A stretch of 64,000 nucleotides of DNA, taken from positions 1 to 64,000 of IMG/VR virus record IMGVR_UViG_3300019854_000029. One strand, given 5' to 3'. Shown one piece after another: positions 1 to 26,004 of the stretch (positions within the stretch are counted from its first letter, which is position 1; the number at the start of each line of letters is the position of its first letter). The DNA is from a virus. A program made the position numbers and the translations under genes. The notes beneath the pieces are model-generated. The model was given only the letters and a program-made list of their open reading frames with translations, did not search any database and was not told the origin of the DNA.

Positions 1-429
1 ATGGTGTTTTTCATCAGTTTTCTTACATCAGTTTACATCAGTCATCAAAAAACGTCATCAACACGCCGGGATGCTAGTGTTTCCAACGAAACAGTGTTTT
101 GGGGGTAGCGTGCTGTACGCCCGTGACCGTGACCAAGAAACAAACCGTGCTATAGCGTCTCAAAACGTGGACTAGACGCTCAAAACGTGACCAACCAAAG
201 CATCATGCTATAAACCCGAAACTATATGACCAAGAAACCCATCTTCATGACCAAAGAGTGAAACTTCATGACCAAGGCGTAAAACACGCCCCAAAAACAG
301 GAGCGTGCGAAAAACAGAAACTATATGACCAAGAAAACAAACTTCATAACCAAGAACCGCGATTTCCATAACCGAGAAACACAACTATATGACCGAGGAA
401 CAAGTTCATGACCAAGGCGTTATAAACGC
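1..429. repeat. IR-L: left copy of a ~430-bp inverted repeat packed with iteron-like direct repeats (outer edge cut by window start)
   Basis: 1-429 is the reverse complement of 60799-61227. Positions 1-87 versus 61141-61227 differ at about one base by eye; the inner part is colinear but diverged. Eight phased copies of [TC]AT[GA]ACC[AG]AG start at 225,246,267 and 324,345,367,388,407 (19-22 bp period). There are also degenerate GTGACC copies at 122-195, two CTCAAAACGTG copies (159,179) and five CATCA(G) copies at 12-60. Confidence 0.9.
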
Positions 430-808: not shown

Positions 809-2305
809 TTAGCGACCTGCCTTCTGGATGTCAGCAACCTGCTTGACAGTCATACCGAGGAGTAGAGCGATTGTTTCTTGCGCGTAGCCTTCCTTCGTGT
901 ACACCTGGACGCTACTAACTAGATCGCCTTCATCGAACTCGGGGACGAACACGGGGGCGGCTACGATCACCGAGTACGTGAAATAGAACCAGCCTTTCTT
1001 CGGGCCTCCCTCACGAAAGACTTCTTCCTTCCCACCGGGAATCAGAGTGAACTCGTCGGCTTGCGGGTCGTAAGCGACTAGCCTCGCCATGAGGCGCTTG
1101 CGTTCCTCAGTGTTCTTAGCGGAATCAACTCTGTGCAACGTGTCTTTAAGGAGCTTCGTGAGGCCACTGATGCGCTTCTGCCCGTATGGGGCGGTTTTCT
1201 CCATCAGGTGCCTATAGAGACTGGTTTCGACGGTGCGCAGAATCTTGCTCTCGAAAACGTGGTCAAGGTCGTTGTAGTACAGGCCCTTATACATTTCCTT
1301 TGACGGCGGGTACTTGACGAGCGAAATGACCGTCGCACACAGTCCCTCCAACAGGGACGATTTAATGCCGTCGTAAGAGTCAGCGGGGATAGAAGTGCGC
1401 CACACTTGCTTCCCGTCTTGCATGAGACGGTACACCCACGTGTCGAACCCGAACCTAGCGTCAAACGTCGCCGTGTATGTCAGGCCAGTGAACTGCCTGT
1501 CAATGTTCACGCTTGGCCCCATTGCTCGTAGGGAGTAAATGGAACCGGAAACTAGGAGGGGGGTTTCTTCTCTCATTGAGTATGTGAGCTTACCGGGGCT
1601 GTCTGTGGAAGCGAAAGTGAAAGCATCATCAGGCTCGCTATCCTTAGCGGGTTTTTCTTCCGCGTCTGCGTGGGCTGACACGATCTTGCGGTCAGGCATT
1701 CCAGACACGATTTCCAGCTCGCGTTCTTCGCCGCCCGCCTCCATCTCATCGAGACTGTAGGTCACCTCAAAACACGTTGTGAAACAATCGTTCTTAAAGT
1801 CGTAAGCCCGCAAGCATGAAGCATACTCAGCGTATTTCTTAGGGACCGGCGGCACGAACCACGTGAACAGGTTCGTGTCCAAATCCCACAGGAGCGAAAT
1901 ACCGTCCTCCGCATACGGGTGAGTCTTGACGAACTTTTCCGCCGCCTTCCGAGAGTCAAACACTCGACTGGGAGACCATTCTTCCTCCCCAGCGGGAGTG
2001 AACTGCGGGCGCTCAGCCCACAAGTAATAGTCCTCACCGGACTGGCAAACGAACCGCGCGGGGACACCTTCGGGGACGATATCGTCACCGGGGCCATCAA
2101 TCGCGATCTCGCTAATGTGCGCGGCATCGCGAATGATGGTCTCTAAGGTTTTCAAGACCTCGCTGATATCCCAACCGGCCTCAGTGTCATTGAGAATACG
2201 GTGAAGATTAGCTTCTAGGTTGAGTGCCCACTGGACGTGAGTGTGCTCAACGCGCCACTTCTTGCCTTCTTGTTTGATCGTCGCGTAAATGCCTGTTTGC
2301 GCCAT
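809..2305 (-). CDS. HTH superfamily, long form A1 (unknown function; C-terminal sigma-70 region-4-like HTH)
   Basis: 498 aa; first of three tandem paralogs. Shared motifs are G[IV]YATI near the N-terminus, LLWD[LM]D[TA]N.FTWF, RFG[FY]DT.V and C-terminal YTKEGY.Q..IAL[LI]L..[TS]VK[QE]V. Confidence 0.85.
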   Translation of the reverse strand: MAQTGIYATIKQEGKKWRVEHTHVQWALNLEANLHRILNDTEAGWDISEVLKTLETIIRDAAHISEIAIDGPGDDIVPEGVPARFVCQSGEDYYLWAERPQFTPAGEEEWSPSRVFDSRKAAEKFVKTHPYAEDGISLLWDLDTNLFTWFVPPVPKKYAEYASCLRAYDFKNDCFTTCFEVTYSLDEMEAGGEERELEIVSGMPDRKIVSAHADAEEKPAKDSEPDDAFTFASTDSPGKLTYSMREETPLLVSGSIYSLRAMGPSVNIDRQFTGLTYTATFDARFGFDTWVYRLMQDGKQVWRTSIPADSYDGIKSSLLEGLCATVISLVKYPPSKEMYKGLYYNDLDHVFESKILRTVETSLYRHLMEKTAPYGQKRISGLTKLLKDTLHRVDSAKNTEERKRLMARLVAYDPQADEFTLIPGGKEEVFREGGPKKGWFYFTYSVIVAAPVFVPEFDEGDLVSSVQVYTKEGYAQETIALLLGMTVKQVADIQKAGR

Positions 2306-2320
2306 GACGAGCCTGCTTTC

Positions 2321-3811
2321 TTACTTGTCGGCCATTGAGCGTTGAAGTGCGGCAACCTGCTTAACGGTCACGCCGAGGAGTAGTGCGATGGTGGGCTGAC
2401 TGTAGCCTTCCTTCGTGTAAAGCAGGGCTTCCATCTTCGGTTCTTGCCCGTGTTCACGCACAGGGATAGCGAGCACATCACGATACGAGCAGACAGCGAC
2501 CGCGCTTTGCATACGCGCCACAAGGTTGCGAGAGCCACTGAGAAGCATGTCGATCTTCCCGTCTCGCATGACAGCGAAACAACGGGATGCGTGACGTTCC
2601 CGGTCCTCTTGAGTTTCCGCTGTTTCAACATCCCGGTAGGTCGCGGCCAGCAGGTTCACGAACTTCGCCACGGGAGGCATGTCCGCTGCGTCGGGGTTTC
2701 GCCGGTTCAGCATGTCGATGAAGTCCATTACCTTACGGTGCCCGTAGGGGAAGTCGATCTTCTCGTCAAAGACTGCGTGCGGGTCGTTGTAGAGCAGGCC
2801 CTTCGTCATCTTCTCGGTCATGTCGTCGGGGTCGTAGGTGGCGACCGCCGTGTAGAGACCTTCGAGGAATACGTCGCCGTCTTGCCCGTCGATCTTCGGG
2901 GTGTGGCTCCACCGCCAGACTTGCTTACCGTCCTTGATGAGCTTGTACACCCACGTGTCGAACCCGAAACGAGTGTCAAGCGTTGCCGTGTAGGTCAGTC
3001 CTTGGAAATCGCGCGTGACGCGGGGCGTTGAAACAGAGTAGATGCTTCCGGTTACCGTGGTGGCCGGGCCGTCATCGTGGCGCTGCATGGTGTAGTTGAT
3101 TGTTTCGCCCGGGAGGTGGGCGGGCGTATAGGTTTCGCCCTTCTCGGGGCCTTCCTCACTGGGAGAAGAACTCTCACCAAAGAGGGGAATAATGTCCTTA
3201 CTGCTAGACCTGCCGAAAAACTCAACGTTCTCGATTTCCGGGGCCTTCATTTGCTCAAAGCTGTATGTCACGCGGCAGCAGAACCCATACTGTCCGGTCG
3301 CAAAGTTATATGCCCGAATACTGTAGTAGTCGCCTTCGGTGAACCATGTGAACGTGTTCGCGTCCAAGTCCCACAGGAGCGAAACAGCGTCCTGAACATG
3401 ATTGTGGGTGAATATGAACGTTTCTGCTGCTTTACGGGTCTTAAAAACTTTGGAGACAGAGAAGCGGTATTCCTTCGGTGTGTCCTTCGAGCGTTCTGCG
3501 CCACCTACACAGAAGCATTCTTTCTTGTCGCGCGAATAGACCAAGTATTCACTAGGAGTCTCATCGACCGATTGCTCAAAGTACTTATAGTCGTCTTGGA
3601 GATATTCAACCGCGCCGATATGTGCACAGTCGCGGATAACGTTTTTAAGGACATTCAGACACTTGTCTGCCTGCGTCCGTTCAGGGTCTTGGAGCAGATA
3701 GTTCAATACGTGGTGAAGATGTAGCGCCCATTGCACGGTGACGTGTTCTAGGACGTATTCTCCGGTTTCAGGGTTCTTCTGGATGGTTGCGTAAACGCCG
3801 CGTTGTCCCAT
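2321..3811 (-). CDS. HTH superfamily, long form A2
   Basis: The track ORF extends to 3907. I moved the start to ATG 3811 because MGQRGVYATI aligns with the A1/A3 N-termini and GGAGG lies 7 nt upstream. It carries the same motifs as A1. Confidence 0.85.
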   Translation of the reverse strand: MGQRGVYATIQKNPETGEYVLEHVTVQWALHLHHVLNYLLQDPERTQADKCLNVLKNVIRDCAHIGAVEYLQDDYKYFEQSVDETPSEYLVYSRDKKECFCVGGAERSKDTPKEYRFSVSKVFKTRKAAETFIFTHNHVQDAVSLLWDLDANTFTWFTEGDYYSIRAYNFATGQYGFCCRVTYSFEQMKAPEIENVEFFGRSSSKDIIPLFGESSSPSEEGPEKGETYTPAHLPGETINYTMQRHDDGPATTVTGSIYSVSTPRVTRDFQGLTYTATLDTRFGFDTWVYKLIKDGKQVWRWSHTPKIDGQDGDVFLEGLYTAVATYDPDDMTEKMTKGLLYNDPHAVFDEKIDFPYGHRKVMDFIDMLNRRNPDAADMPPVAKFVNLLAATYRDVETAETQEDRERHASRCFAVMRDGKIDMLLSGSRNLVARMQSAVAVCSYRDVLAIPVREHGQEPKMEALLYTKEGYSQPTIALLLGVTVKQVAALQRSMADK

Positions 3812-3888
3812 GACGGGGCCTCCAATTCTTTTGGGTGGAGCGATTGTCTTACCGCTAGGAAATGTTTCCTCTCGCCGCGTGAACATGG

Positions 3889-3937
3889 TTAAAAAATCCG
3901 GTCCCACGCGCTGTGCTCAACAGACGCATGGGACCGG
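3889..3937 (-). terminator. Rho-independent terminator after A3
   Basis: 9-bp stem CCGGTCCCA (3898-3906) / TGGGACCGG (3929-3937). On the minus strand it is followed by a U6 run (A-run 3891-3896 on plus). Confidence 0.7.
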
Positions 3938-3974
3938 GGATGAACTATTCGGATTTTCCGAACGGTTGGGCCTG

Positions 3975-5468
3975 CTACAAGCCGCGCTGGGACGCTGATA
4001 CTTCCTTAACGCTCATGGCAAGAATCAACGCGATACGTTCTTGCGTATAGCCTTCTTTCGTGTAGGCCAAGACGCTTTCTCGGAATGGCCGGTCTTGGGC
4101 TTGCGGGTGAACCAGCGGAGAGTTTGCGAGGTCTTTGTAAGCGATGACGTGCGTGCGAGGCCCAGTGGCCTGTTTCGCTTTCTTCTTGGCTTCTGTCGCG
4201 CCGATAGCCTGCGCGAACACGCCGTTTTGCCAGTCAACGATGAAGTACGTGGTTCTAAGGCGCGTTTTTTCCTGCCGGGTTTCCGCTTTCTCTATGGCTT
4301 TGAGCGTCATTGCAGCGCTGAGTGTTAGGCGTTCAGCTAGGTTCATCTCACCGGCAGACAGTCCTTCACTGCGCGGAACGCTCACGTCACGCACACCCGC
4401 GTAGATGTAGACCTTGTAGGTGTCGAGGAGAAGATGCTTAGCTTTGTCTTGGAACAAGGTCCAGTCGTCGTTGTAGCGTAGACCGTCTTTCACGCCGATC
4501 ATCAACTCATCGCGGTTATCGGCAATATGCCTTGCGGTGGCGCACAGCGACTCGAACACGGCTTCCCTCATGTTCTTATAGGTAGAGGGATTACGGCTTG
4601 TTCTAAACACGGGTTTTTTATCGCGGTAGAACGTGACAACCAAAGTGTCGTAACCGAACCGCTTGTCGAGGACGACCTTGAACGAGGTGGGTTCCCACTG
4701 TTCGTGTTCCTTACCGTGAACAAGGATTTTCTCAATAGTCCCGGTGAGACTGGTTTCCGTGTTTTCTTTGCCTTTCCGGTACTCGATAACCACTGGCAGG
4801 AGCTTGCTCTCATACTCCTCTGGGGGGCGCTGCTCTAAGGGGGTGCGGTAAAGCGGGATTTCAGGGAGCCGGTGGCGTGATTCGCCGTTGATAGCGTTGA
4901 CCACGGCCCGGCGGTCACACATCTGCTCGAACGTGTAAGTCACGGCAGAACAACTCTCAACCTTCTCTAGGCCGAAATTGAACGCGACGAAACTGTAGCG
5001 TTTCCCCGGAGCGGTGAACCACGTGAACGTGTTCGCGTCCATATCCCATAGGAGGTTCTTGCTCATTAAAACGGGAGAGTAGTGGTTGTAGATAGCGTCG
5101 AGAGCTTCCTGTCGAGAATCAAACACTCGCTCATCAAAGTCACGCTCAAACGCGGGTACGTCGCTAGAGAGCCGCATGTTTGCGACTAAAAGTTTTTGCG
5201 TCTTATCTTCCGTGAATAAAGCAGCCCAATCGTCGTGAGCTTCAGCTTCTTCTGCCGAGCACTCTGTGATTGCGTGGATGCTTTCACAGTCCTTGATGAC
5301 TTTCAGTAAGACATCGAGGACTTTATATGGGTCCCAGCCCTGTTGGGGGAGAGACATCATGTGGTGGATTGAGTCATGGCTGATGCTCGTGTTTCCCACT
5401 TCAACGATACGGACAAGTGTTTTCCCGTCTTTGCGTTGGTTAATGGTCGCGTAAATACCTTCCGACAT
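3975..5468 (-). CDS. HTH superfamily, long form A3
   Basis: 497 aa; has the MSEGIYATI, LLWDMDANTFTWF, RFGYDTLV and YTKEGYTQERIALILAMSVKEV motifs. AAGGAAAGAAG lies upstream of the ATG. Confidence 0.85.
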   Translation of the reverse strand: MSEGIYATINQRKDGKTLVRIVEVGNTSISHDSIHHMMSLPQQGWDPYKVLDVLLKVIKDCESIHAITECSAEEAEAHDDWAALFTEDKTQKLLVANMRLSSDVPAFERDFDERVFDSRQEALDAIYNHYSPVLMSKNLLWDMDANTFTWFTAPGKRYSFVAFNFGLEKVESCSAVTYTFEQMCDRRAVVNAINGESRHRLPEIPLYRTPLEQRPPEEYESKLLPVVIEYRKGKENTETSLTGTIEKILVHGKEHEQWEPTSFKVVLDKRFGYDTLVVTFYRDKKPVFRTSRNPSTYKNMREAVFESLCATARHIADNRDELMIGVKDGLRYNDDWTLFQDKAKHLLLDTYKVYIYAGVRDVSVPRSEGLSAGEMNLAERLTLSAAMTLKAIEKAETRQEKTRLRTTYFIVDWQNGVFAQAIGATEAKKKAKQATGPRTHVIAYKDLANSPLVHPQAQDRPFRESVLAYTKEGYTQERIALILAMSVKEVSASQRGL

Positions 5469-5522: not shown

Positions 5523-5623
5523 CACCTAGACGGGCAACAAACTCCGGTTAAAACAGGGGAGTGCCCGTGCCGCACGTGAATGCGACACAGGCACCCGCAC
5601 TGTGTATTTCTGGTTCTAGCCCT

Positions 5624-6430: not shown

Positions 6431-8017
6431 TTATTCCCACGGCCACTTTTGGGTGATGCCACGTTCAAGGAGAGGAATCATGTTGAAAGCGTTATCGGTG
6501 AGGCCACCGAACGTCCATCGCAAGGGCCGTGAGGCTCCCTGTGCTACGGCGTATCCGTCGAGGTTCCACGTGAACACGGGAGTGTTCTCAGCGAAACTGT
6601 CGAGAACGTTATCGACTGAGCGGCCCCAAGAGTTCATTGAGGTCTGTTCGTCAGTCAAAATGATGACGCGATCATACGTTTCACCGTTCGCGTATGCGTA
6701 CTCGATAGCGCGGTCAGTGTAAGTTCCGCCGTAAGAGCTGGGCATGGCTTCCGTTGCGCGCAAAAGGTCGCGAGTATCTACTCGAATATCCTTTGCGTTT
6801 TCTGCGAAAGCGACGACGCGAACGTTTTCGCCTCGGATAGCGAGCGCAGCCGCAAACACGTTAGCAGCGTCCTGACGAGTCAAACTAGAGCGCTCAGACA
6901 AGGCAGCGTGCATTGAGCCGGACGTATCAAGGAGAACGAGAGTACGGCCCTTGAGTGCGGGAACCGCCGACAAAGAGGCGTTAGCTGCCCGCTGCAAAGC
7001 AGGAGCGAAATCTAACGGCGTGTTCTTGTAGGCAGAGTAGAACGCGACGGGGAGAGTACGCGAGGCGCGTGCTTCTTCACGGTCTCCAATACGCTTTGAC
7101 ACGGTGTCTAGCAAACTGTCGGGAACGTCCTCTGTTTCTGCGATACGACGCAAGCTCATGCGCAGCGCCGTGTAGCCCATAAAAGGAACAAGGGACTCCC
7201 ACACGCTCGCGGGAACCTTACGCAAAGCACTGGAAACAACTTCAATACTCAAAGCTGCTTCCTTAATGACTTTCTCACTATCGAGGCCAGTTAGGGCCTC
7301 GATCTGCTTCTCGACAGGCAGAGACAGGAACGCTCGACGCGCACGAATAGTCTCCAATCCCTCAGCAGAGTTAGCTTTTCCGTATGACTCATCGAGGACG
7401 AGGCGAACAAGGCGAGACTGTGCCTCATTACGGGGGGAGAGGTGTACGAGGTTGATAACGTCACGCAGCTTGACGGTGCCTGAGTTCATGCGCCCGTTCC
7501 ACTTCAAGTACGAGCGCTCATTCAAGAGCGCCTTGAGAGCGTCGGACACGCCTCGACGCACACACGAGGGGACGTTTCGACCGTAGTTGCTCAGCCACCC
7601 GGCAAGGAAATCGCCGGTTTCGTCCAAACGGCCAATGGAAGCCCTAACGATCTCGCGATTGTAGCCGGAAAGCCCAGCTTCAAGGCGAGCCTTAACGACA
7701 CTCATTGCGACGATCATGGGGACAGAACGTAGGCCAACATCTTTACGGAGCCAACCCACAAGCCCGAGAACCCATTCAGGAGAGTTCAATACTTCTTCTT
7801 CGCGTGCGAGGCGCTGAATACGCTCAGTGCGTTCGTTAGCGGTTTCGTAGAACGTGTCCTCATTCAGTGAGGTGACGGCAGCGAGAAACAGTTCGCTCTT
7901 AGGGGTGCGGGTATAACCCAAGGCACCTTCATGAGTGAGAGCAACGCGGTCTGTGGTAGCGACCGGCGTGGTTGCAGTGTTTTTAGGGCGAGCGGTTCGC
8001 GTATTCATGCGCGACAT
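6431..8017 (-). CDS. rsr: Ro60-related protein (Rsr): TROVE domain + von Willebrand A domain
   Basis: The N-terminal part is TROVE-like (HEGALGYTRTPKSELFLAAVTSLNEDTFYE...). The C-terminal vWA has a complete MIDAS (LLDTSGSM ... GGTYT ... LTDEQ). I set the start at ATG 8017 (GGAGG 5 nt upstream); the track start is 8029. Confidence 0.85.
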   Translation of the reverse strand: MSRMNTRTARPKNTATTPVATTDRVALTHEGALGYTRTPKSELFLAAVTSLNEDTFYETANERTERIQRLAREEEVLNSPEWVLGLVGWLRKDVGLRSVPMIVAMSVVKARLEAGLSGYNREIVRASIGRLDETGDFLAGWLSNYGRNVPSCVRRGVSDALKALLNERSYLKWNGRMNSGTVKLRDVINLVHLSPRNEAQSRLVRLVLDESYGKANSAEGLETIRARRAFLSLPVEKQIEALTGLDSEKVIKEAALSIEVVSSALRKVPASVWESLVPFMGYTALRMSLRRIAETEDVPDSLLDTVSKRIGDREEARASRTLPVAFYSAYKNTPLDFAPALQRAANASLSAVPALKGRTLVLLDTSGSMHAALSERSSLTRQDAANVFAAALAIRGENVRVVAFAENAKDIRVDTRDLLRATEAMPSSYGGTYTDRAIEYAYANGETYDRVIILTDEQTSMNSWGRSVDNVLDSFAENTPVFTWNLDGYAVAQGASRPLRWTFGGLTDNAFNMIPLLERGITQKWPWE

Positions 8018-8044
8018 AATTGCCTCCATTATTGGCGTGTTTAT

Positions 8045-8138
8045 TTAGAAAAAAAGAGGTGGCGTTAGAGGAAAGACGAACTAGGTGAAAAAACATATCC
8101 ATCATGTAGTAACCCAGTTCAGCGCTTCTAACGCCACC
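8045..8138 (-). ncRNA. Y-RNA-like two-helix stem-loop with U-tract (alternatively an oversized terminator of the tRNA gene)
   Basis: 12-bp perfect stem (8058-8069 / 8127-8138). A second 9-bp helix (8078-8086 / 8112-8120) has one non-Watson-Crick pair, which is G.U on the minus strand but A.C on the plus strand. The apical loop is 25 nt, and UCUUUUUUU follows on the minus strand. The element starts 3 nt after the tRNA 3' end and ends 28 nt before the rsr start. Confidence 0.45.
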
Positions 8139-8140
8139 AG

Positions 8141-8231
8141 CGGAGCGAGTGGGAGTCGAACCCACGGAACGAGTTGTTTCCCGTTCACTTCATTAGCAGT
8201 GAAGCCCTTTCGGCCACTCAGGCACCGCTCC
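8141..8231 (-). tRNA. tRNA-Ser (anticodon GCU), class II, CCA not encoded
   Basis: The 91-nt manual fold has acceptor GGAGCGG/TCGCTCC (one G.U) and a 3-bp D stem with a GG loop. The anticodon stem is CTTCA/TGAAG with loop CTGCTAA. A long variable arm forms a GAACGGG/CTCGTTC stem. The T arm is GTGGG-TTCGACT-CCCAC and the discriminator is G. Confidence 0.9.
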
Positions 8232-8332
8232 TTTGGGGTGCCCCCTCCCCAAGGAAAGCAGAGTCAGTATTGACAGCAGAGAGGGGGCGTATTGAGTTAT
8301 GTTGTTGTGAACTGCGCACACCTGAATGATGT

Positions 8333-8356
8333 GTACCTAAATTGTAGGAGTATGGC
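8333..8356 (-). promoter_or_regulatory. Recurring upstream element, copy 1 (upstream of tRNA-Ser)
   Basis: The minus strand reads GCCATACTCCTACAATTTAGGTAC, about 20 of 24 identical by eye to 43564-43587 and 58029-58052. It lies 102 nt upstream of the tRNA 5' end in the same orientation. Confidence 0.5.
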
Positions 8357-8394: not shown

Positions 8395-11300
8395 CTAGCG
8401 AGCGTCGTTCAGGCCACGAGCAACCGCACCCATCGCACGCTTACCCCCACCACCAAGCAACTGGCCCACACCAAACAATGCGCTCGCGGTGAACCCAAAC
8501 GCGCTACGCCACGTCTTACCGAGGAACCCGATATCGTTGCGCTTCCACGTGTCAGTCGTCCAGTCCCACGTGCGCTTACGACCACGCGACAGGTAGCGGG
8601 TAGCGGCGTACATGGCTGCTTGCGTGTCGTCATAGCGGCGCATACCGGTCGGGACACCGTGTTCTTCACTCCATGTGGAGCGGTCGAACTCTTCCCCGGC
8701 AATCGTGATGTGTTGGAGAGTGGGGAAAGCAGCGAACATTTGCCCGATGCTCTTACGGCCCTCGAACCCGAGGTCAGGGCACACATACGACATGTAGAAC
8801 TGCCATGAGTCGAACGACATTCGGCGTAGGTTGTGCATCTCGCGAATCATCCGCCAGTTCGCGATAGGAGCGATGTTGCTTGACCGTACTGCTTCACGCA
8901 GGTACTCGGGGATAGCCTCAATATCCCATTCCTCAGCGACCTTAGTCTGGTAGGCGACACCGTTGAGGATAACGAGGCCACCGGCCACGCCCAGACGCTT
9001 CACTCGGCCCCAGTCGCCAACCCACTGGCGCATATCCTGATAGATCGCGTCCTGAACACCATCAGGGGTGAGTTCTTGCGCGTGGATAGTGCGAGGCGTG
9101 CCCTTGTTGAACGAGAACCCGCCGTACTGGTTCGGTGTGACAGGGCTGGTGGAGTAGTCCCATCCGGGAGCGGGTGCCGTCACGTCGTTCATGCGAGCAT
9201 TCACCGGCACGGGAGCGTCATCGGGAATGTCAGGCATGATGGGAGCCGGAGCGCTCACAACCGGCATAGCAGGAGCGACGGCAGGCTTAGGCTCTTCACC
9301 CCACCCGCCGACGGTTTCCACCTTCCCGGCGGGCGCAGTATCAGTCAGTGACGCGAACGCCGAGTCATCCCAAGCGTCCTCTTCTTCCATGCGCAACGGG
9401 TCCGCAGCGTCCTCTTCGGGGAACTCATTGGGATACACGCGGGCAAACAGTTCGCGCTCAGCGTTCACTGGGTTTTCCGAACGGTTAAACGCCGCATAGA
9501 ACTCAGCAGACGAGTACATGTACTTCGGACGCAAGTCCACAAGCCACTCTTGCCACGTCCCCGGATAACCGGCTTCCTTCACGACGAGGTTCGCCGCGTC
9601 GGAAAGTTTCTGTAGGGTTGCAGCGGCCTCAGCGCGAGACACTCCCGCGCGTTCAAGGTAGCCAATGAACCCCAAGGCCGGGTCAAGTCGCCCATCGTCA
9701 AGGGACACGTCCTTACGGACAGAATCAACGTCCACGCCCGCGCGCTTCATGTATTCCACGGAGAACGGCCAGCAGTACCCGTCCTCTTCGGCTTCCGCAT
9801 ACAGGAGACCGGGACGGAACGGGAGAGCAGTTTTAGCTAACTGCTCATCGCCCTTCACGAGAGCGCGCTCAATGTTCGGCCCGTTGAAGTCTTGCACGTA
9901 AGCAAACGCGCGCACCGTCTCAGAGAGCTTGTCATGCATGAACCCGTTCGGGGAACCCTGATTGAGGTACTGGGGGCGTTCCTTGTTGTAGCCGATAAAC
10001 GCATCAGCAGCAGTCAGGGACGAGGCGAACGAGAACACGAAATTGTCCATGTTCCCCAGCTTCACGGTCACGCCCTGAGTACGGTTCAACGGGGGCACGA
10101 ACGTTGAAACAGGAGTAGGAGCAACCTCGTGTTGACCAATGAGGAAGATATCGCTCACAGCCTGCTCGCGGTTCTTATAGTTCGCGTTACCAATCGTCGT
10201 GATCTTGTCCGCGCTCATACGGATACACTCACTGAACATTGAGGCCCACAAGTGAACCTCAGTGATCGCATCCTTGGGTTTCTTCTTCTCATCAAACCCG
10301 GACGCTTCCCACGTGTCGTAGGAGTTCACGTAGTCAGCGGGGCGCGCATATTTAGCGAGCTGCACAAAGAACCGGCTCATCGACAAGCCGACGTTACTGA
10401 TCTCATCGAAAACGAACGACACGCCCTTCTTGCCGCCCAACTGTTCGGCAACGCCCTCACCGTTCGTGCGAGCAAGGAGAATGCCCATAGCGAGAATCAT
10501 GTACCGGATGTAAGCGACCGTACCCAGCAGACCGGGGTAGCTTTCCCCTTGGAACCCGAGGGGCCTCAAGTAGGACGGGACGTGAGCCATGCGGCCTAGT
10601 TTTTCTACCTGATCGGCACCGAAATGCCCAAACAAGTCCGTGCCCTTCTCGCTACCGAAGTCAGGGCCGTTAATGACGAACGCATTCGGGTTGATCTCTA
10701 GCAGGAGGGAAGCCATGTCGGGCTTATTGTCCGCAAGACCGAGGGCCTTACCGGCAATGAGCATTGCCGCAAGGTACGCCTGAGTCATGAGGCCCTTACC
10801 GGAGCGAGAACCAGCTAGAACAACATGCAGGCCGCTCTTAGCGAACGCGGACAGTGCTTTGGACGTGTCAACGATTGTTTCGTCTAGTCCGAGGCCGAAA
10901 ATCGCGACGGTTTCAGCCCGCAGGTTCGCGCCTTGACTCATCTTGGCTTCAAGAATCTTGTAGGCGAAAATCGGGGCGGCGTTAGCGAGAATCGTATCCA
11001 CGTCATAACGGTGTTCCCACATGAGGCTGCTACGAACCGGCGCATACGACCGGCTCTTATTACCCGCAGCCACACCGTAAGCGCGTTCCACGGACTCTTT
11101 AGCGATGTCGTCACCTAGTTCCTCGTGGCGCGTGAGGGAACGCAGTTTGAGCTTGGTGAGGGTTGCGCGACTGTTGACCTCGAATGAGGACACGAGGAAA
11201 CACGTTGTCATCGCATTGTAGATACGTTCCAACGCGCCTGAAACACTATTCTTCACGCTCTTAGACGTGTAATCCTCGCCGTCGCTCGCGGCCCGCAGGA

Positions 11301-12888
11301 GGAGTTTCTTCACGACAGCTTGAAGCATCGTCTCCAAGCTCGGCTTCACCTCTTGTTCGAGGTAGGTTTCCCACTTGGAAGCCGCAGCGAGGCGCGGATA
11401 CGACTCCGGTGACGCGGGGTCAAAACCGCGCCCGAAAGCGTATTCGAGCATCTTGTAGGGGAAGTAGAACTCGGTGTCTTTCGCATACACCTTGCCGTTA
11501 GAGTCTTTCCCGTTTACGACGATCTCAGCGATCTCGTTAATGTCCCTCGTGGGCATGGCTTCCAACTGGGGGACGAGGCCCTTGATGACCTTCCATGTTT
11601 CCATCGTCACCGAGTCCGGTAGGCGCATGAACGCGCGGTCATCGTCGTTGATCGCCAGCACGCGGCCCTTAGAGTCCTTCCCGTCCGCGCCCGTGTTTTC
11701 GGGGGCGAGAATACCGAAAGGCTTAATGACCTCGTAGCCGGAGGAGAAGATTCGCGTGTATTCTTCCGCGATCATTTCAACGTGGGAGAAAATCATGCCG
11801 TTAAAGAATGACAAGGCTTCATCGGGAACAGTCTTGTCAGGCTCACGTTCCCCGTTGAGAGCGTCAATCACTTCTTGAATCGTGATGCTCTTAGAAACCG
11901 TGTCGAACCCGAGTTTTTCACGTTGCTCTTTCGGCAGGGCATGGAGATACAACGCGGCAGACAGGGCTTCGTTTTCACAGTCACACATCACGCCGTGGAA
12001 CTGTTCTTTCGTGAGCTGCCCGAGAACACTGCTGCTTGCAACGACAGGGAACCATTCGGGCTGAGCGTCAAGGGGGGAGAGGTCCCACGTGAGCGCGGCA
12101 ATAGCGTCAAGGTACACGCCGCCACGCTGGGCAGCGGCCTTCAACAGTCGCAACAGGCTCATGCGCAGTGGGGAAGCCTCAAACTCAGCAAGACGCGCAG
12201 CCAACCCGTCATCTTCGGGCGCACGGAACGCATCGACCGTCTCAACGGCTCCCTCTTCTTCGGGCATACGCGGGCGCGTACACAACCCCGACAGGAACGT
12301 CTCTAGCGTCCCGCCGATCATGTCCGCAGAATACGTTTGAGGTGAGAGCTGGAAACTGTTCATCACCATGTCATAGGGCTTCACTTGCACGTACTGGCCC
12401 ATTTGAGACAAGTCAACAGCGAACTGCAAGGGGACAGGCGCATCCAACAGGAGCGGGCGAGCATCCACGCCACCGCCTTGAGCTTCCGCATAAGCCTCAC
12501 GCTCACGGCGCAACGCGCCCGCAAGCAGTTCAATCCCCATCATGCTCTCATCGGGAATACGGTAAATCGCGCCAATACGAGTGCCCTCAGTGAAAAACCG
12601 CGACAAATCCACGCCCTCAAACATGCTTTCCGGCGCGACAATCACTTCCAACGCGCCGAACTGCTTATACGACAACGCGCGCAGCGGAGAACGACGCGAA
12701 TCAGCATTCTTCGGGTTAGCAGGAGTCAACGCACCCTTATTCGCCCCATGCTTTTCTACATACACGCCGTCATGGGAAATAATCAGGCTCTTCACCGTGT
12801 TCGGAGTCCACGAACCGTAATCCGTGCCCTCACCGTCAGTGACCCAATGACCACCCAACGCCTTCAACACGTCATCAAACGACACCAT
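8395..12888 (-). CDS. giant (~1497 aa) protein with central P-loop NTPase-like motifs, possibly TraG/VirD4-type
   Basis: A single uninterrupted ORF. The track start is TTG 12930; I prefer ATG 12888 (MVSFDD). Motifs are VVLAGSRSGKGLMT (Walker-A-like, GKG as I recall in TraG/VirD4 coupling proteins) and VSFVFDEIS (Walker-B-like). There is a Pro/Ala-rich linker near residue 1230. Confidence 0.8.
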   Translation of the reverse strand: MVSFDDVLKALGGHWVTDGEGTDYGSWTPNTVKSLIISHDGVYVEKHGANKGALTPANPKNADSRRSPLRALSYKQFGALEVIVAPESMFEGVDLSRFFTEGTRIGAIYRIPDESMMGIELLAGALRREREAYAEAQGGGVDARPLLLDAPVPLQFAVDLSQMGQYVQVKPYDMVMNSFQLSPQTYSADMIGGTLETFLSGLCTRPRMPEEEGAVETVDAFRAPEDDGLAARLAEFEASPLRMSLLRLLKAAAQRGGVYLDAIAALTWDLSPLDAQPEWFPVVASSSVLGQLTKEQFHGVMCDCENEALSAALYLHALPKEQREKLGFDTVSKSITIQEVIDALNGEREPDKTVPDEALSFFNGMIFSHVEMIAEEYTRIFSSGYEVIKPFGILAPENTGADGKDSKGRVLAINDDDRAFMRLPDSVTMETWKVIKGLVPQLEAMPTRDINEIAEIVVNGKDSNGKVYAKDTEFYFPYKMLEYAFGRGFDPASPESYPRLAAASKWETYLEQEVKPSLETMLQAVVKKLLLRAASDGEDYTSKSVKNSVSGALERIYNAMTTCFLVSSFEVNSRATLTKLKLRSLTRHEELGDDIAKESVERAYGVAAGNKSRSYAPVRSSLMWEHRYDVDTILANAAPIFAYKILEAKMSQGANLRAETVAIFGLGLDETIVDTSKALSAFAKSGLHVVLAGSRSGKGLMTQAYLAAMLIAGKALGLADNKPDMASLLLEINPNAFVINGPDFGSEKGTDLFGHFGADQVEKLGRMAHVPSYLRPLGFQGESYPGLLGTVAYIRYMILAMGILLARTNGEGVAEQLGGKKGVSFVFDEISNVGLSMSRFFVQLAKYARPADYVNSYDTWEASGFDEKKKPKDAITEVHLWASMFSECIRMSADKITTIGNANYKNREQAVSDIFLIGQHEVAPTPVSTFVPPLNRTQGVTVKLGNMDNFVFSFASSLTAADAFIGYNKERPQYLNQGSPNGFMHDKLSETVRAFAYVQDFNGPNIERALVKGDEQLAKTALPFRPGLLYAEAEEDGYCWPFSVEYMKRAGVDVDSVRKDVSLDDGRLDPALGFIGYLERAGVSRAEAAATLQKLSDAANLVVKEAGYPGTWQEWLVDLRPKYMYSSAEFYAAFNRSENPVNAERELFARVYPNEFPEEDAADPLRMEEEDAWDDSAFASLTDTAPAGKVETVGGWGEEPKPAVAPAMPVVSAPAPIMPDIPDDAPVPVNARMNDVTAPAPGWDYSTSPVTPNQYGGFSFNKGTPRTIHAQELTPDGVQDAIYQDMRQWVGDWGRVKRLGVAGGLVILNGVAYQTKVAEEWDIEAIPEYLREAVRSSNIAPIANWRMIREMHNLRRMSFDSWQFYMSYVCPDLGFEGRKSIGQMFAAFPTLQHITIAGEEFDRSTWSEEHGVPTGMRRYDDTQAAMYAATRYLSRGRKRTWDWTTDTWKRNDIGFLGKTWRSAFGFTASALFGVGQLLGGGGKRAMGAVARGLNDAR

Positions 12889-13362
12889 GCTTAGTGTCAC
12901 CTCTCTACTCAAGCCCCACACTAGGGGCAAAGAAAGTTGCTAACCTACAACACTCGAAAACATGGGGGAGAGGGCATAAAAAAGCGTGAACCGCACGGCC
13001 CATCGAGGCTAAGACCGCGCGGCTCACGCCGTGTATTTATCACTGTGAAAAAACTGGAAGCAACACAACCGCCAGCACTCACATAACTAAGCCTACAGCC
13101 ACCACCATGTTCTGTCAGGAACACGCCTATAAAGCACGAGGCCCGCGCGGCCCACCAGAAGTGGAGGGGGCACCGCGCGAGCCTTAAAACGACACAAACA
13201 CAAGGAAAATGAGGAAACCCCGTGCCCATGTCGCCATGCGATCTCAATACAGAGGACACGAAACACGATCATCGCCACCGCGTTTCTTGTTCTCACACGT
13301 AAGCATACAAGCAACACGCCGTAACGCAAATCACTTTACTGAGTAAAGACTGTAAATAGGCG

Positions 13363-14083: not shown

Positions 14084-14207
14084 TAAAGAAGCGAAACGAT
14101 AACGCAGTAACTCAGCCACAGTAGAGGGAAGAGAGAAAAGCACAAGCAAAGCCACCCGGAGGGGCTTTTTGTGCCTAAAACGCTTTAACTTGAGGCGTTT
14201 AACAGTC

Positions 14208-15170
14208 ATGTACGGGACTTTATTTGTCTATGTGGGACCTATGGGCGCGGGTAAGACGCAGGATGCGGCTTCATGTTTTCTGGATTCCAGTGTTGTCTCA
14301 CTGAGTGCTATTCACCGTGAAGCGTATGGCTCCCCGGTGGTTGATCGCCAGTATAAAGACGCAGTGACGCGGCGCGCGTTTAAGAAACTATTCGCATTGT
14401 TAGAGCGCGGTTTGGACGCGGTTTTCATAGCGCCTAACTGTTCTCGCATGTCTCGCGCGCACTTATATCGGGAGGTGAAAGCACGGTTCCCGGGCGTGCG
14501 GGTGGTTGTCGTGTTGGTGCATGTACCGCTCGCAGAGGCTATCAAGCGTTCTAACAATGTGAGCGCGTCCCATGTTCGAGACGAGTATCTAGGGCTGCAA
14601 ATCCCGCGCGTAGGCGTGGACTGCGACACGTTCACGCTGCAAACACCCGACTTCTCGGCCTACCTGCCGGAAATCAACCACTCGTACCTCGCGCCTCATA
14701 ACAGCCCGTATCACGTGGAGTCCATTGCTGAGCATGTTGCCCTCACGGTACATAACGCGCATAAAGACACCACCCGGCCCGCATTAGTGGATATCGCAGC
14801 GTTCCACGACCTCGGTAAGAGCGTCGCACGCACAGCACAAGACCTATCCAGACCATCATCGGCGTATATCGCATCCATTTACGGCAGTCACGACCAGTAC
14901 GCAGGCCATGAGAACGTGAGCGCCGTCTACTGGATGATCGCCCACAAGGACTGTCTTGACGCGCACGCCTTGTTCGTTGCGGAAGCAATCTTCCACCATA
15001 TGCAAGCCCATCGTGGTTTTACCGACAAGTACATCAACCGCCACCACCTCACCGGCGATCTGTTGGAAACCGCACGCGCTTTCGCGCAAATCGACAGTAG
15101 CTCGAAAATCGTAGACAAAGACATCTTGGACACGTACATGAGGCTGCGGGCAGCGGAAAAACAAGGCTAA
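14208..15170 (+). CDS. P-loop kinase (polynucleotide-kinase/AAA_33-like) fused to an HD phosphohydrolase domain (K1)
   Basis: The track start is TTG 14169; ATG 14208 gives MYGTLFVYVGPMGAGKT (Walker A). The C-terminal half carries NSPYHVESIAEH ... AAFHDLGKS ... HHMQAH, which are HD-domain metal ligands. It is a paralog of 22838-23821. Confidence 0.8.
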   Translation: MYGTLFVYVGPMGAGKTQDAASCFLDSSVVSLSAIHREAYGSPVVDRQYKDAVTRRAFKKLFALLERGLDAVFIAPNCSRMSRAHLYREVKARFPGVRVVVVLVHVPLAEAIKRSNNVSASHVRDEYLGLQIPRVGVDCDTFTLQTPDFSAYLPEINHSYLAPHNSPYHVESIAEHVALTVHNAHKDTTRPALVDIAAFHDLGKSVARTAQDLSRPSSAYIASIYGSHDQYAGHENVSAVYWMIAHKDCLDAHALFVAEAIFHHMQAHRGFTDKYINRHHLTGDLLETARAFAQIDSSSKIVDKDILDTYMRLRAAEKQG

Positions 15171-15245: not shown

Positions 15246-16013
15246 ATGAACGATCAGAAGCCTTATCCTCTGCCGCTTTGCCCCGACGTTCAAGCAGTAG
15301 CCAACTGGTCAAGTAACGAACTAACAGGGACTTTGACGTTCTCAGACCCCGCATTCAAGCCCGTCCACTTCATCACCAAACCTATTGACCGTCATGGGCT
15401 TATCCGTGAAGTGACTTACCTGACGCACGATGACATGGTTATCGGAACAAGGTTTGTTTCTCGCTTTTACCTGGCTAACCCATTGACTGCGCGAGATTTA
15501 CTTCAAGGTCTTGAAATTAAGTCCCCGACATCTGTTCGTTGCTGCCCCAAGAAAAGTTGCGACGACGACAACTATAAAAAGGGCTTCTTTTTCAAGGTCC
15601 GTAAAGCTATCGGCGTACACAAACCACACTATCCTGATACAGAAATCGAAAAGGATACCTACCGCCAGATTGCCGAACAGTGTTTCAACCTGTTTCACGC
15701 ACTAAAAGGCGGGTTTATCACGCCAGAAGAAGCGGGCAACTGCAAGTGGCTCATCGACGTAAAAATGCTCTCATTCACAGCGGAATTTAACGGTATTTTC
15801 TCCAATATCGACAAGAAGAACCTCCCGCCACACGTGCGACTTGTCGCGTACTACGACATTCTCGACACGCCCGCTTTGTACGACGAGTGCTCATTCGCGA
15901 GAAGCGTGTTCCTGTGGGCCGCACAAGGCTACACGCAAGAAATGATCGCGTTCTTCATGGGAGTCAGCGCCAGCAAAATCTCCCGCATCCTCAACCAGCC
16001 ACTCGACGAGTAG
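15246..16013 (+). CDS. HTH superfamily, E-type, N-terminal part of a split gene (E0-N)
   Basis: 255 aa; aligns with residues 1-~250 of E1-E3 (LTGTLTFSDPAFKPVHF versus RGTLVFSDSRYKPISV). It ends with the HTH WAAQGYTQEMIAFFMGVSASKISRIL. Confidence 0.8.
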   Translation: MNDQKPYPLPLCPDVQAVANWSSNELTGTLTFSDPAFKPVHFITKPIDRHGLIREVTYLTHDDMVIGTRFVSRFYLANPLTARDLLQGLEIKSPTSVRCCPKKSCDDDNYKKGFFFKVRKAIGVHKPHYPDTEIEKDTYRQIAEQCFNLFHALKGGFITPEEAGNCKWLIDVKMLSFTAEFNGIFSNIDKKNLPPHVRLVAYYDILDTPALYDECSFARSVFLWAAQGYTQEMIAFFMGVSASKISRILNQPLDE

Positions 16014-16024: not shown

Positions 16025-16363
16025 ATGACAGCCTCAAAAGAATCCACGCTTTTCCCCGTTGGAACAATCTTCGTTGATCGCGGTAATTACCGGACAGGGG
16101 ACAGCGTTGTCTTGTTCTACCAAGTGGTGCGCTGCACGGAGCGAACCGTGTGGTACGCGCAGATCACCTCGCACGTAGTCGCCTACGACTCGGCAACACT
16201 GAGGAAAGACCTTGTTCCGATTGCGGACACCTACAACCCGCGCGTAAAGCCCCACATGGCACGCATCCTCCGAGAGAAAAGATTCCACTGCGTGAAGTCA
16301 CCAACCGGAGACATAATGCTCCCGTGGGACGGACATCCCGTCAGCCAATACTACGGATACTGA
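16025..16363 (+). CDS. stand-alone copy of the E-family C-terminal domain (E0-C)
   Basis: The ATG at 16025 lies within track ORF 15887-16363, with AGGAA 8 nt upstream. STLFPVGTIFV...FYQVVRCTERTVWYAQ matches SKLYP[IT]GTI..T...[FY]WQV[IV]R[CS]T[EK][RK]TLW[VM]Q at the C-termini of E1-E3. Confidence 0.75.
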   Translation: MTASKESTLFPVGTIFVDRGNYRTGDSVVLFYQVVRCTERTVWYAQITSHVVAYDSATLRKDLVPIADTYNPRVKPHMARILREKRFHCVKSPTGDIMLPWDGHPVSQYYGY

Positions 16364-22837: not shown

Positions 22838-23821
22838 ATGCCAGCGCTTTATATCCTCATCGGCCCAGCGGGGGTCGGTAAGACAAGCCTTGTGAACAGG
22901 ATTAGCGCCGGTAATGTCGTGTCTACAGACGCTATTCGCATCGAACGATACGGTTCCCTCACGGAAGGCAACAAACATAACCCGCAAGTATTCAAGGCTG
23001 CTTACAGTTACATTCACACGCTGCTGGACATGGGACAAGACGTGTTCTTTGACGCGACGAACATTAGGCGACTCTTACGCGCCGATCTGTATCAGGACGT
23101 GAAGAAACGTCACCCTAATGTTCCCGTCATCGCGCTCATCATTCATAAGCCTCTCGCTCAGATTCTTGCCCAGAACGCTTTACGTATGGGGGACGCTCGG
23201 GTACCTGAAGAAGCTATCCGCTACATGTACCTGCACTTGGATATTCCGCGCCTCGGAGTAGACGCAGACGCAGTAGAACTGCAATGCCCCGCGTTCGACG
23301 AGTACATTCCCGAAATGACGCTCAACATTGACGCACCCCACCGCAACCCCTACCACGTGGAAACAATCGCGAAACACCGCGAGCGCGCCATACAGATCGC
23401 AGCGAGCGGCCCATACGCAGACAACCCCGCGTTAGCTCACGCAGCCGCCTACATTGACCTCGGTAAACCCGTCGCACGCACCCCACAAGACACGTCCACG
23501 CCATCAGGCGCTTACGCAGCGGCCCACTGTGGCGGCTACGACATGTACGACTGCTACGAGAAAGTCAGCGCCCTCTACTTCCTCATCGCACACAAAAACG
23601 CGCTCACCCCCTACACGTGGCACGTAGCCGAAAGCATCTTCCAACACGTCCACGCGCACAGTGGCTTCACGAAACGCTACGCCGCCACACACCACCTCAC
23701 GCGCGACGTGATAGCCACAAGCAAACAACTCGCCTCCATCGACCAACAAGCCAGCCTCACCAACCCGCAGGTACTCAACACCTTCAAGCACCTGCAACTA
23801 GCCGAAAGGAAAACAGCGTAA
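22838..23821 (+). CDS. P-loop kinase / HD-like fusion (K2) with a degenerate HD dyad
   Basis: MPALYILIGPAGVGKTS (Walker A) and FFDATNIRR (PNK/AAA_33-like). The C-terminal half is colinear with K1, but FHDLGK is replaced by YIDLGK. Its stop overlaps the start of the next gene (TAATG). Confidence 0.8.
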   Translation: MPALYILIGPAGVGKTSLVNRISAGNVVSTDAIRIERYGSLTEGNKHNPQVFKAAYSYIHTLLDMGQDVFFDATNIRRLLRADLYQDVKKRHPNVPVIALIIHKPLAQILAQNALRMGDARVPEEAIRYMYLHLDIPRLGVDADAVELQCPAFDEYIPEMTLNIDAPHRNPYHVETIAKHRERAIQIAASGPYADNPALAHAAAYIDLGKPVARTPQDTSTPSGAYAAAHCGGYDMYDCYEKVSALYFLIAHKNALTPYTWHVAESIFQHVHAHSGFTKRYAATHHLTRDVIATSKQLASIDQQASLTNPQVLNTFKHLQLAERKTA

Positions 23822-24930: not shown

Positions 24931-26004
24931 ATGAGCCAGAAGAAAGAAACTGTCCCTCTCCACGGGTATGTCGGCGTGACCGCTGATGTTGAGTGGGAGA
25001 AAGAAGGCGAGAGCGGCAGGGTAACGTTCCACGGCACAGGTAACTTCCAAGATAAGTTCCCGCCGTTGGAGTTTAAGGTCGATCACCTTAAAGGCAGCAC
25101 CGTCTCACTCACGCGATTCACTTATTTCCTTAACGGGAAAGAAAAAGCGCGCTTCGTTGAGGACATGAGAGAAGGGGAAACTGTCACTGCGAACATGGTC
25201 GAGTTCTACGCCAGTTTGTACCTTGAAGGCAGGTCACAGTTCCCGAGTTCCTACAAGCAAATGTTTTCTCACAAGGCATTCGTGTACCTCTGCAAGGGGC
25301 CATACGCGCGGTTTGTCGATTGCCGTCCAGGACTATCTACTTTGGTGCGCAAAGTCGCAGAGTGGGCAACACACATCCTAGAGACGCGCGGACCCCGATG
25401 TGAAATAACCGGAATCTACGATTACAAGAGGAAAGACGTCCTAGAGATTCAAGACGGCAACGTTACTTTCACCAAAACAATGGAAGAAATGGGCCTCCTC
25501 CCCATTCACTTCCCCTCGCTCGTGAACACGCCGGGGTGCTTCTTCCCGCACCTAAGCGTAGAGAGCAACGCTTTCGCAGCCGCCGCACTCGGAGCCGAAA
25601 CAAAAGACATCGCATGGCTACTGTCAATTTCAGAAGAACAAGCCAGAGCATTCAGCGCCCCCGCGCGCAGAATATGGCTAGACCCACGAAACGAGTCGAA
25701 ACTTTATCCCATTGGGACAATCTTCATGACCGCGCGCCCTATGGCATCCGATCAGGTGCTTCTTAGGTACTGGCAAGTGGTCCGCTGCACGAAAAGAACC
25801 CTCTGGATGCAAGAGCTACAAGCCGCAGGAGACCGCCAGACAGGACGATATCTCCCCGTGCGCGACACTATGAAGAATGACGCTATCTACGAGTGCCGCA
25901 TCAACCTGAAAGCCGCAGTCGGGGCACCCATCCGCATCGACGGGGATATCGCAACCATCTGGGCCAGGAAAGTATTCACAGAGGACGCTCATCGCACTGT
26001 TTAG
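24931..26004 (+). CDS. HTH superfamily, E-type (E2)
   Basis: MSQKKETVPL...VEWEKEGESGRVTFHG; AAAALGAETKDIAWLLSISEEQ; SKLYPIGTIFMT...YWQVVRCTKRTLWMQ. Confidence 0.85.
   Translation: MSQKKETVPLHGYVGVTADVEWEKEGESGRVTFHGTGNFQDKFPPLEFKVDHLKGSTVSLTRFTYFLNGKEKARFVEDMREGETVTANMVEFYASLYLEGRSQFPSSYKQMFSHKAFVYLCKGPYARFVDCRPGLSTLVRKVAEWATHILETRGPRCEITGIYDYKRKDVLEIQDGNVTFTKTMEEMGLLPIHFPSLVNTPGCFFPHLSVESNAFAAAALGAETKDIAWLLSISEEQARAFSAPARRIWLDPRNESKLYPIGTIFMTARPMASDQVLLRYWQVVRCTKRTLWMQELQAAGDRQTGRYLPVRDTMKNDAIYECRINLKAAVGAPIRIDGDIATIWARKVFTEDAHRTV

Follow-up and report, generated by a model that had tools for sequence, protein, structure and literature searches.

A family of modular proteins sharing a predicted helix-turn-helix domain and confined to one element lineage

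We analysed 64,000 nucleotides (nt) of the IMG/VR virus record IMGVR_UViG_3300019854_000029, positions 1 to 64,000, a 64-kb stretch called the window below. Exactly ten open reading frames (ORFs) in the window, A1-A3, C1-C3, E0 and E1-E3, have one domain of ~55 residues in common, which is predicted to fold as a helix-turn-helix (HTH). The proteins constitute a new lineage-specific family built on a known HTH class, and its tandem genes have exchanged modules by recombination.

Genes and architectures of the family

A1-A3 are three tandem paralogous ORFs of 496-498 amino acids (aa) with pairwise blastp E-values of 1e-37 to 1e-74 (Table 1). The mechanical maximum ORF of A2 has a GTG start, ends at 3907 and encodes 528 aa; we adopted the ATG behind a GGAGG ribosome-binding site, and relatives are likewise called with a 496-aa product. 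In blastp, C2 and C3 align over their full length with residues ~233-495 of the A proteins at ~1e-11, and for C1 the match is weaker, at 2e-5. E1-E3 are also mutually paralogous (1e-32 to 1e-93), and the start of E1 overlaps the stop of a gene encoding a kinase and an HD domain (TAATG), referred to as a kinase-HD gene.

E0 matched E1 at 2.5e-10, A3 at 3e-7 and C3 at 2e-5, and corresponds to the N-terminal part of E1 plus the HTH. Judged by these matches, E0 is the bridge between the A/C group and the E group. The ORF directly after E0, denoted as E0b, matched the ~110-aa C-terminal domain of E1-E3 (blastp 1e-9 to 1e-11). Considering that E0 matches the front part of E1 and E0b matches the C-terminal domain of E1-E3, E0 and E0b together represent a split E architecture. 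The split is kept in relatives, where the E0 clusters are 255-256 aa long.

Three basic architectures are therefore present. The A proteins consist of an N-module, a middle module, a C module and the HTH; the C proteins of the middle/C module and the HTH; and the E proteins of a different N-module, the HTH and a beta domain, an arrangement that also exists in two genes as E0 and E0b. An earlier first-pass annotation, read from the sequence of the window, had described the A proteins as an N-module joined to the module that stands alone in C2 and C3, and the E proteins as a different N-module, the HTH and a ~110-aa domain. Both descriptions agree with our alignments, while E0b as the split-off C-terminal domain had been missed.

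Table 1. Positions of the family members, their parts and neighbouring features in the window
Feature	Position (nt)	Strand	Description
A1	809-2305	-	498-aa ORF; paralog of A2/A3 by blastp
A1 modules	HTH domain 812-985	-	N-module aa 1-~150; middle ~150-290; C module ~290-440; HTH domain aa 441-498
A2	2321-3811	-	496 aa; HTH domain nt 2324-2494
A3	3975-5468	-	497 aa; HTH domain nt 3978-4148
E0	15246-16013	+	255 aa; E-type N-module, then C-terminal HTH domain
E0b	16025-16363	+	112 aa; E-type C-terminal beta domain as its own gene with its own ribosome-binding site, without HTH
E1	23821-24891	+	356 aa; N-module, internal HTH, disordered linker, all-beta C-terminal domain (262-343)
E2	24931-26004	+	357 aa; architecture as in E1
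E3	26075-27121	+	348 aa; architecture as in E1
C1	58156-59013	+	285 aa; divergent C type, middle/C module and HTH; blastp to A1 2e-5
C2	59044-59907	+	287 aa; equivalent to the C-terminal ~265 aa of A proteins (RYGFTTWV ... HTH)
C3	59912-60727	+	271 aa; architecture as in C2
Island encoding LLWDxDxNxFTWF	A1 1852-1894, A2 3337-3379, A3 5012-5054	-	repeat family D12, 79-91% identity
Island encoding RFGFDTWVY...KQVWR	A1 1398-1486, A2 2913-3001	-	repeat family D11, 83% identity
Terminator-like hairpins	5559-5596, ~3895-3960; also 13593, 13852, 21526, 22750	- (first two)	
Inverted repeat, left arm	1-429		~21-bp iterons, core ATGACCAAG; context only
Inverted repeat, right arm	60799-61227		full repeat ~558 bp, about 60797-61354; context only
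Ro60-like protein	6431-8231 (region)		vWA_Ro60 domain, 532 aa; adjoins tRNA-Ser(GCT) at 8140-8231
1511-aa ORF	8395-12930		no Pfam, PHROG, NCBIfam or PADLOC match; 97-99% conserved among relatives
Kinase-HD genes	14169-15170, 22838-23821		paralogous; AAA_33 (Pnkp-like) kinase and HD domain
LGFP protein	40276-42219		six LGFP repeats and C39-like peptidase domain; 75-90% identical to chromosomal Actinomyces/Pauljensenia genes
Surface adhesin	55491-57854		787 aa; signal peptide, T-Q ester domain, LAHTG sortase motif, membrane anchor
Three best CTATTTAGGTACA copies	8332-8344, 50434-50446, 58041-58053	-, +, +	overlap -10-like hexamers of promoter-like sites

A3, A2 and the second kinase-HD gene are each preceded, at a distance of ~85 nt, by a terminator-like hairpin with (G/T)TTTTAAC behind it, and the one in front of A3 comprises 17 base pairs. 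Insulation or attenuation may act on each A gene by itself. The sequence GTTTTAAC was tried as an upstream promoter motif and rejected, since it is not enriched (7 copies versus 3.8 expected) and is the tail of these hairpins.

The shared domain and its remote relatives

The domain starts with a Y-x-x-h-h-x-x-P strand followed by a three-helix HTH, and the strand lies ~20 residues before the helices in all ten proteins. The shared unit thus exceeds the short motif by which the first-pass annotation had grouped the same ten proteins; that motif is strict only in A1-A3, relaxed in C1-C3 and E0, and degenerate in E1-E3. When the A/C module was aligned with the E family by hhalign, only the 55-column C-terminal domain was aligned (probability 94.5%, E = 8e-8). 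In a search of 844 six-frame ORFs, a hidden Markov model (HMM) built from the A/C sequences alone placed E0 (6.5e-10), E1 (3.6e-3), E3 (0.32) and E2 (0.99) in the next four positions, and leave-group-out HMMs recovered the other group. The domain HMM returned exactly ten members in the window, with the next-best match at E = 0.37, a count that is partly circular because the HMM was trained on the members. Taken together, the hhalign result, the A/C-only HMM and the domain HMM indicate that the superfamily is real. A and C are linked strongly to E0, and E1-E3 are joined through full-length homology to E0.

AlphaFold2 models of A1 and E1 were built from alignments of 25-26 sequences. The A1 model (mean predicted local distance difference test score, pLDDT, 78.7) has helices at 462-472, 476-483 and 487-497 by DSSP, and the E1 model (mean pLDDT 81.2) has them at 203-212, 217-224 and 228-242. 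Local pLDDT over the three consecutive motif helices is ~85-94 in both models, which display the three-helix bundle with a tight turn between helices 2 and 3 that is generic to HTHs.

When a 59-position profile of the domain was searched against all PDB sequences, the LuxR-type DNA-binding domain of SdiA was matched at E = 9.4e-5 over 49 of 59 positions (profile positions 8-56 against residues 172-218), followed by RhlR (4e-3), the SIRV HTH protein 2x48 (4e-3) and a sigma-H factor (0.018). These matches point to remote whole-domain homology to the solved LuxR-type DNA-binding domains of SdiA and RhlR. In Foldseek, A1 was aligned over 54 columns to a SIRV2 'resolvase HTH domain' protein of BFVD with a probability of 0.99. 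The Pfam matches of the members are all sub-threshold and all to HTH families, namely Sigma70_r4 and Sigma70_r4_2, PhyR_sigma-like, HTH_3, HTH_23 and GerE. GerE (PF00196) matched two of 17 members with a best E of 0.12, short of its threshold, and Sigma70_r4/Sigma70_r4_2 reached 12-13 bits against cut-offs of 24-26 (E 0.011-0.15) in 3-4 of 17 domain sequences. Based on the profile and the models, the fold class seems to be LuxR/sigma-4/resolvase, and the resemblance to sigma region 4.2 and LuxR-type HTHs noted in the first-pass annotation appears well founded; 'sigma-4/LuxR-like HTH' is a fair description of the fold class.

LuxR/GerE domains such as those of SdiA and RhlR share several features with the family: helix 1 ends in 'xEG', helix 2 reads 'xxxIAxxLG', the recognition helix reads 'xSxxxVxxx', and the domain is C-terminal behind a variable N-terminal part. 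In contrast, the family stays below the Pfam GerE cut-off, does not possess the fourth, dimerisation helix or an autoinducer-binding or receiver domain, and is near-neutral in charge. The proteins are thus not canonical members of LuxR/GerE and belong to no curated family, and at most they might work like LuxR-type regulators with a C-terminal HTH.

The likeness to region 4 of sigma-70 and to sigma-4 of extracytoplasmic function (ECF) sigma factors raises the alternative that the proteins are RNA polymerase-associated factors, whose sigma-4-like domain docks on the beta flap or replaces region 4 of the host sigma factor while the variable modules redirect transcription. A, C and E0 proteins have the three-helix HTH at their very C-terminal end, which is also where region 4.2 is located in sigma factors, and there is weak profile and fold resemblance: Sigma70_r4, Sigma70_r4_2 and PhyR_sigma-like matched at E 0.004-0.15, the sigma-H factor appeared in the PDB profile search, and the non-significant Foldseek list of E1 is enriched in ECF sigma factors and PhyR (E 0.28-2). 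The near-neutral charge would also fit a protein-protein role. However, no sigma region 2 or 3 was found by Pfam or NCBIfam, and Sigma70_r2 in particular was absent at E <= 1 in ten of ten proteins in Pfam. The N-modules are beta-rich and not sigma-like, the domain is internal in E1-E3, and all sigma matches are far below the cut-offs while LuxR-type domains score better. Because region 2 is lacking, none of them is a sigma factor. Promoter-like sites in the window belong to the ordinary -35/-10 types, and we could connect no promoter motif specific to the element with the proteins. We thus regard a role at RNA polymerase as very improbable. The speculation of the first-pass annotation that the proteins are alternative specificity subunits acting on a recurrent upstream element fails on the same absence of region 2, sub-threshold Sigma70_r4 and beta-rich N-terminal modules, and nothing links the proteins to that element.

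The possibility that the proteins are terminase small subunits or belong to another known HTH family, which the first-pass annotation had named as the case that would overturn its view, deserves almost no credence. Weak PHROG matches to terminase small subunit families (E ~0.03) are confined to the HTH, but they span just ~30 residues and do not reach significance. The presence of ten paralogs with three different architectures and the plasmid-like context described below also speak against it, and no large subunit, portal or capsid gene was detected among the 30 neighbouring proteins scanned in the window and 10 kb beyond.

The reading that we favour, at a little under an even chance, is that the proteins are element-specific (lineage-specific) modular HTH transcription regulators. 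The HTH module would most likely tether each protein to operator-like sites in the element's own DNA, a variable sensor, effector or partner-binding function would come from the exchangeable modules outside the HTH, and the proteins could possibly autoregulate their own arrays. Under such a regulator model, candidate sites may be the array promoters, the TTTAGGTAC promoters and the iterons of the inverted repeats.

Several observations weigh against regulation of this kind. No binding site or operator was identified for the proteins, and no member reaches a curated Pfam HTH cut-off. The canonical fourth helix of LuxR/GerE is absent, as A, C and E0 end 0-10 residues past the third helix, and E2 and E3, in both of which the HTH motif is degenerate, are members only transitively. 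Full-length Foldseek searches gave no significant match, leaving the 59-position profile and the secondary structure as the basis of the fold class. The net charge of the HTH domains is -2 to +3, and the recognition helix of C1 is acidic; the A proteins are acidic as a whole, with isoelectric points (pI) of 5.0-6.4 and, for A1, a net charge of -21 at pI 5.0. A near-neutral HTH in acidic A proteins would be atypical for dedicated DNA-binding regulators. The first-pass annotation had called the proteins DNA- or RNA polymerase-binding: the predicted HTH fold is in line with this, and for DNA binding, which we infer from the fold, the near-neutral charge is a caveat.

An analogy is offered by the domain-shuffled Bro-N, KilA-N and ANT regulators of DNA viruses and phages, reportedly described by Iyer, Koonin and Aravind in Genome Biol in 2002. 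They too are multi-copy families of mobile elements that join a single DNA-binding module to many partners, with fusions, fissions and stand-alone forms. Unlike them, the present family has its HTH at the C-terminus or internally and is confined to one element lineage. Bro-N, KilA-N and ANT domains were not found in the family by Pfam or PHROG, making this an analogy without homology.

Homologous recombination at motif islands among the tandem genes

To describe variation at the A locus, we compared it with the backbone of the element in relatives. The backbone, represented by the Ro60-like vWA protein and the 1511-aa protein, is 97-99% identical between relatives, whereas in the same comparisons A1 shows 60-98%, A2 86-94% and A3 90-97% identity. 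The difference is unevenly distributed within A1. Against the allele of the relative L034, the N-module (aa 1-200) is 97% identical, the middle (aa 236-440) only 62% with a synonymous divergence (dS) of ~1, and the HTH (aa 441-498) 83%. Against the gene of L006, the same three segments are 34%, 87% and 98% identical. The dS of ~1 in the swapped segment compares with 0.01-0.07 in the backbone. Even with the rest of A1 replaced, its HTH domain stays 98-100% conserved, and in A2 and A3 a patch around aa 400-460 is variable.

The L006-type element carries one A gene instead of three, and this gene is a three-way chimera. Its first ~150 residues are 95-100% identical to A3, residues ~150-290 are 98-100% identical to A2, and residues ~290-489 are 100% identical to A1. 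The first junction falls inside LLWDxDxNTFTWF and the second inside RFGFDTWVY, and we took the module borders of A1 from these junctions. Both motifs and the HTH are DNA islands of 79-91% identity (repeat families D12, D11 and D3) in paralogs whose proteins share just ~30% identity elsewhere. The chimera is an intact in-frame gene and was seen on several contigs, up to 114 kb in length. Homologous recombination at short conserved islands of motif sequence is thus shown to diversify the tandem paralogs, both within and between them, and the chimera together with the mosaic A alleles bears out the domain shuffling proposed in the first-pass annotation. The merging of three tandem paralogs, at two motifs, into a single conserved chimera that is in frame provides a clean natural example of protein modularity.

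In every measurable segment, the ratio of nonsynonymous to synonymous substitution (dN/dS) was 0.06-0.55. Therefore, the hypervariability is the exchange of old, divergent alleles under purifying selection and not rapid positive selection. The same annotation had spoken of a rapidly diversifying set, which holds for recombination but not for fast positive selection.

The copy number of A genes varies from three to one across relatives. The C and E arrays have three copies in most relatives examined, with one locus lacking a close E3, and the divergent relative L047 keeps the order adhesin, C1, C-like gene. The N-module of the A proteins also occurs alone, in proteins of ~170-200 aa, and on another small metagenome contig (L048, 942-3953) it is fused to an unrelated ~350-aa module without the HTH; the next gene on that contig, judged by eye, is a stand-alone paralog of the ~350-aa module. 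These arrangements point to further fusion and fission in the wider family.

The modules outside the HTH remained largely without relatives. For the A N-module, the A/C middle and C modules, the E N-module and the E C-terminal beta domain, Pfam, PHROG, NCBIfam and PADLOC yielded no significant relatives, and full-length family profiles against PDB sequences matched only through the HTH. Whole-protein Foldseek searches of A1 against PDB and BFVD and of E1 against PDB gave no significant match; matches to DnaK, a levivirus coat protein and PUR repeats were taken as noise with TM-scores of 0.1-0.3. NCBIfam returned nothing for the eight family members scanned, and in PADLOC only A1 was matched (13.7 bits, E = 0.005), the other seven members scanned being without a match. 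The N-terminal modules are mostly beta in the AlphaFold2 models of A1 and E1. The E C-terminal domain, as seen in E1, matched phrog_37844, a family of unknown function, at 1.7e-6, and in tblastn against phages its sole match was a weak one of 77 residues to a hypothetical protein of Synechococcus phage S-CBS4 (5e-4).

Such orphan modules without detectable fold relatives, at a hypervariable mosaic spot in a 97-99% conserved backbone, would be compatible with anti-defence or host-interference effectors fused to an autoregulatory HTH. Acr-Aca fusions such as AcrIF24 and AcrIIA1, in which an effector part is joined to a small HTH, occur in hypervariable spots of mobile elements. By this alternative, the variable N-terminal and middle modules would inhibit host or competitor systems and the HTH would only repress the promoter of its own genes. 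The changing number of A genes and the N-module found elsewhere without the HTH would fit, as would the strong acidity of the A proteins, which many DNA-mimic anti-restriction proteins share, and AcrIF24 is among the non-significant Foldseek matches of E1 (E ~0.8-1.3). On the other hand, the proteins resemble no known anti-defence protein; neither PADLOC nor Pfam returned anything, although these libraries are not aimed at anti-defence genes. The size of the A proteins (~500 aa) is large for inhibitors of the Acr type, relatives keep a stable number of C and E genes, and a dN/dS below 1 carries no codon-level arms-race signature. We therefore consider effectors of this kind rather unlikely.

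A more far-reaching idea is that the arrays are a built-in combinatorial cassette system through which the element varies its anti-defence or host-manipulation functions. The unchanging HTH would serve as a 'dock' that holds exchangeable effector modules on DNA or on a partner common to them, and the motif islands (LLWDxDxNTFTWF, RFGFDTWVY and the HTH) would be the recombination junctions that reassort modules within and between tandem paralogs. We rate such a system as quite unlikely. If the non-HTH modules were indeed anti-defence or sensing domains, they would constitute a set of new folds that are diversified in a new manner; if the proteins are ordinary regulators, they are simply a new lineage-specific HTH family. 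The interest lies in the directly observed exchange of modules and in the unexplored, prevalent element that hosts it.

Distribution of the family and the host element

A full HMMER scan of 1.84 billion representative proteins with the A+C profile returned only 26 proteins, and the contexts of these that were checked are all on the same kind of element. Two candidates from the representative search, the beta-propeller protein P0212 and P0217 with three 'GYATPEIAAILG' repeats, were rejected as motif coincidences. The E profile had 74 matches among 5.8 billion proteins, apparently all from the same kind of contig, while the HTH-domain profile, searched against 5.8e9 proteins with a word index that restricts the candidates, found only four fragments of the same genes. 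A1 is represented by ~200 clusters, from near-identical to 60% identical, on metagenome contigs of up to 133 kb, and its relatives are also found in IMG/VR as 'viral' contigs of 62-123 kb. A1 was not found in GTDB species genomes or, by tblastn, in PLSDB plasmids or GenBank phages, and neither the A region nor a 20-kb block had a DNA match in GenBank phages or PLSDB plasmids. The family is private to one element lineage, as the first-pass annotation had supposed. Many E-family clusters (P0169-P0194) are fragments of 75-200 aa on long contigs, which suggests that the E genes are often frameshifted or truncated among element variants.

The element encodes a Rep-like protein and a lysozyme, has iteron clusters, and carries a gene for a ParM-like partition protein just outside the window, beyond the left arm of an inverted repeat. 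With the Rep-like and ParM-like proteins, the iterons and the sortase-anchored adhesin present and no capsid, portal or terminase gene detected in the scan of neighbouring proteins, the element is regarded as plasmid-like and extrachromosomal, of ~110-133 kb. The host is probably a human-associated Actinomyces/Schaalia (Pauljensenia), an assignment drawn from the identity of the LGFP protein to chromosomal genes of Actinomyces/Pauljensenia. A literature search found nothing relevant on the element. The element is common in public metagenomes, with hundreds of protein clusters and contigs of 110-133 kb; since sequenced plasmids and phages offer no match to it and almost all of its genes are orphans, any clue to how it is regulated would be useful.

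The arms of the inverted repeat (~558 bp) lie ~60 kb apart, are 88-92% identical, and contain 8-10 iteron-like units each, ~21 bp apart, with the core CTWNATGACCAAG; short 'catca' repeats occupy their outer ends. The A array, with a small Xre gene, runs into the left arm and the C array into the right arm. At least one IMG/VR contig (~62.6 kb) is apparently bounded by both arms, and the window begins inside one. The arms vary more between relatives (85-93% identity) than the backbone does, and in most relatives examined the left arm is closer to the right arm of this window than to its left, which suggests exchange between the arms or a flip-flop of the 60-kb segment.

Because each of these two arrays abuts one arm, and since a ParM-like gene lies beyond the left one, the family could be thought to comprise iteron-binding replication, partition or copy-control proteins. 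But the E arrays are nowhere near the repeats, and a single iteron consensus would need at least six divergent recognition helices. Separate Rep-like and small Xre proteins are better candidates, and the arms vary without obvious co-variation with the HTH allele of A1. We judge iteron binding of this sort improbable, and transcription regulators specific to the element are still the reading that we favour.

Each kinase-HD gene lies directly upstream of an E cassette, which suggests a duplicated 'kinase-HD + E' unit with a functional link. The kinase-HD protein has weak Cas3-HD-type matches in PADLOC. Together with the locus of the Ro60-like protein and the tRNA, the kinase-HD genes hint at an RNA repair or quality-control module on the element.

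The motif CTATTTAGGTACA occurs with at most two mismatches seven times in the window, compared with 0.43 expected. Its three best copies lie upstream of the tRNA/Ro genes, gene 50591 and the C array. The copy at 50434 pairs with an inverted copy, CCTAAATAGG, ~65 bp downstream, and this pair could be an operator.

A gene for an IS605-type TnpB/OrfB protein, which is absent from this window, lies between the Ro60-like gene and the A array in relatives, at 4618-5739 in L002-L005 and, in the opposite orientation, at 8219-9343 in L006.

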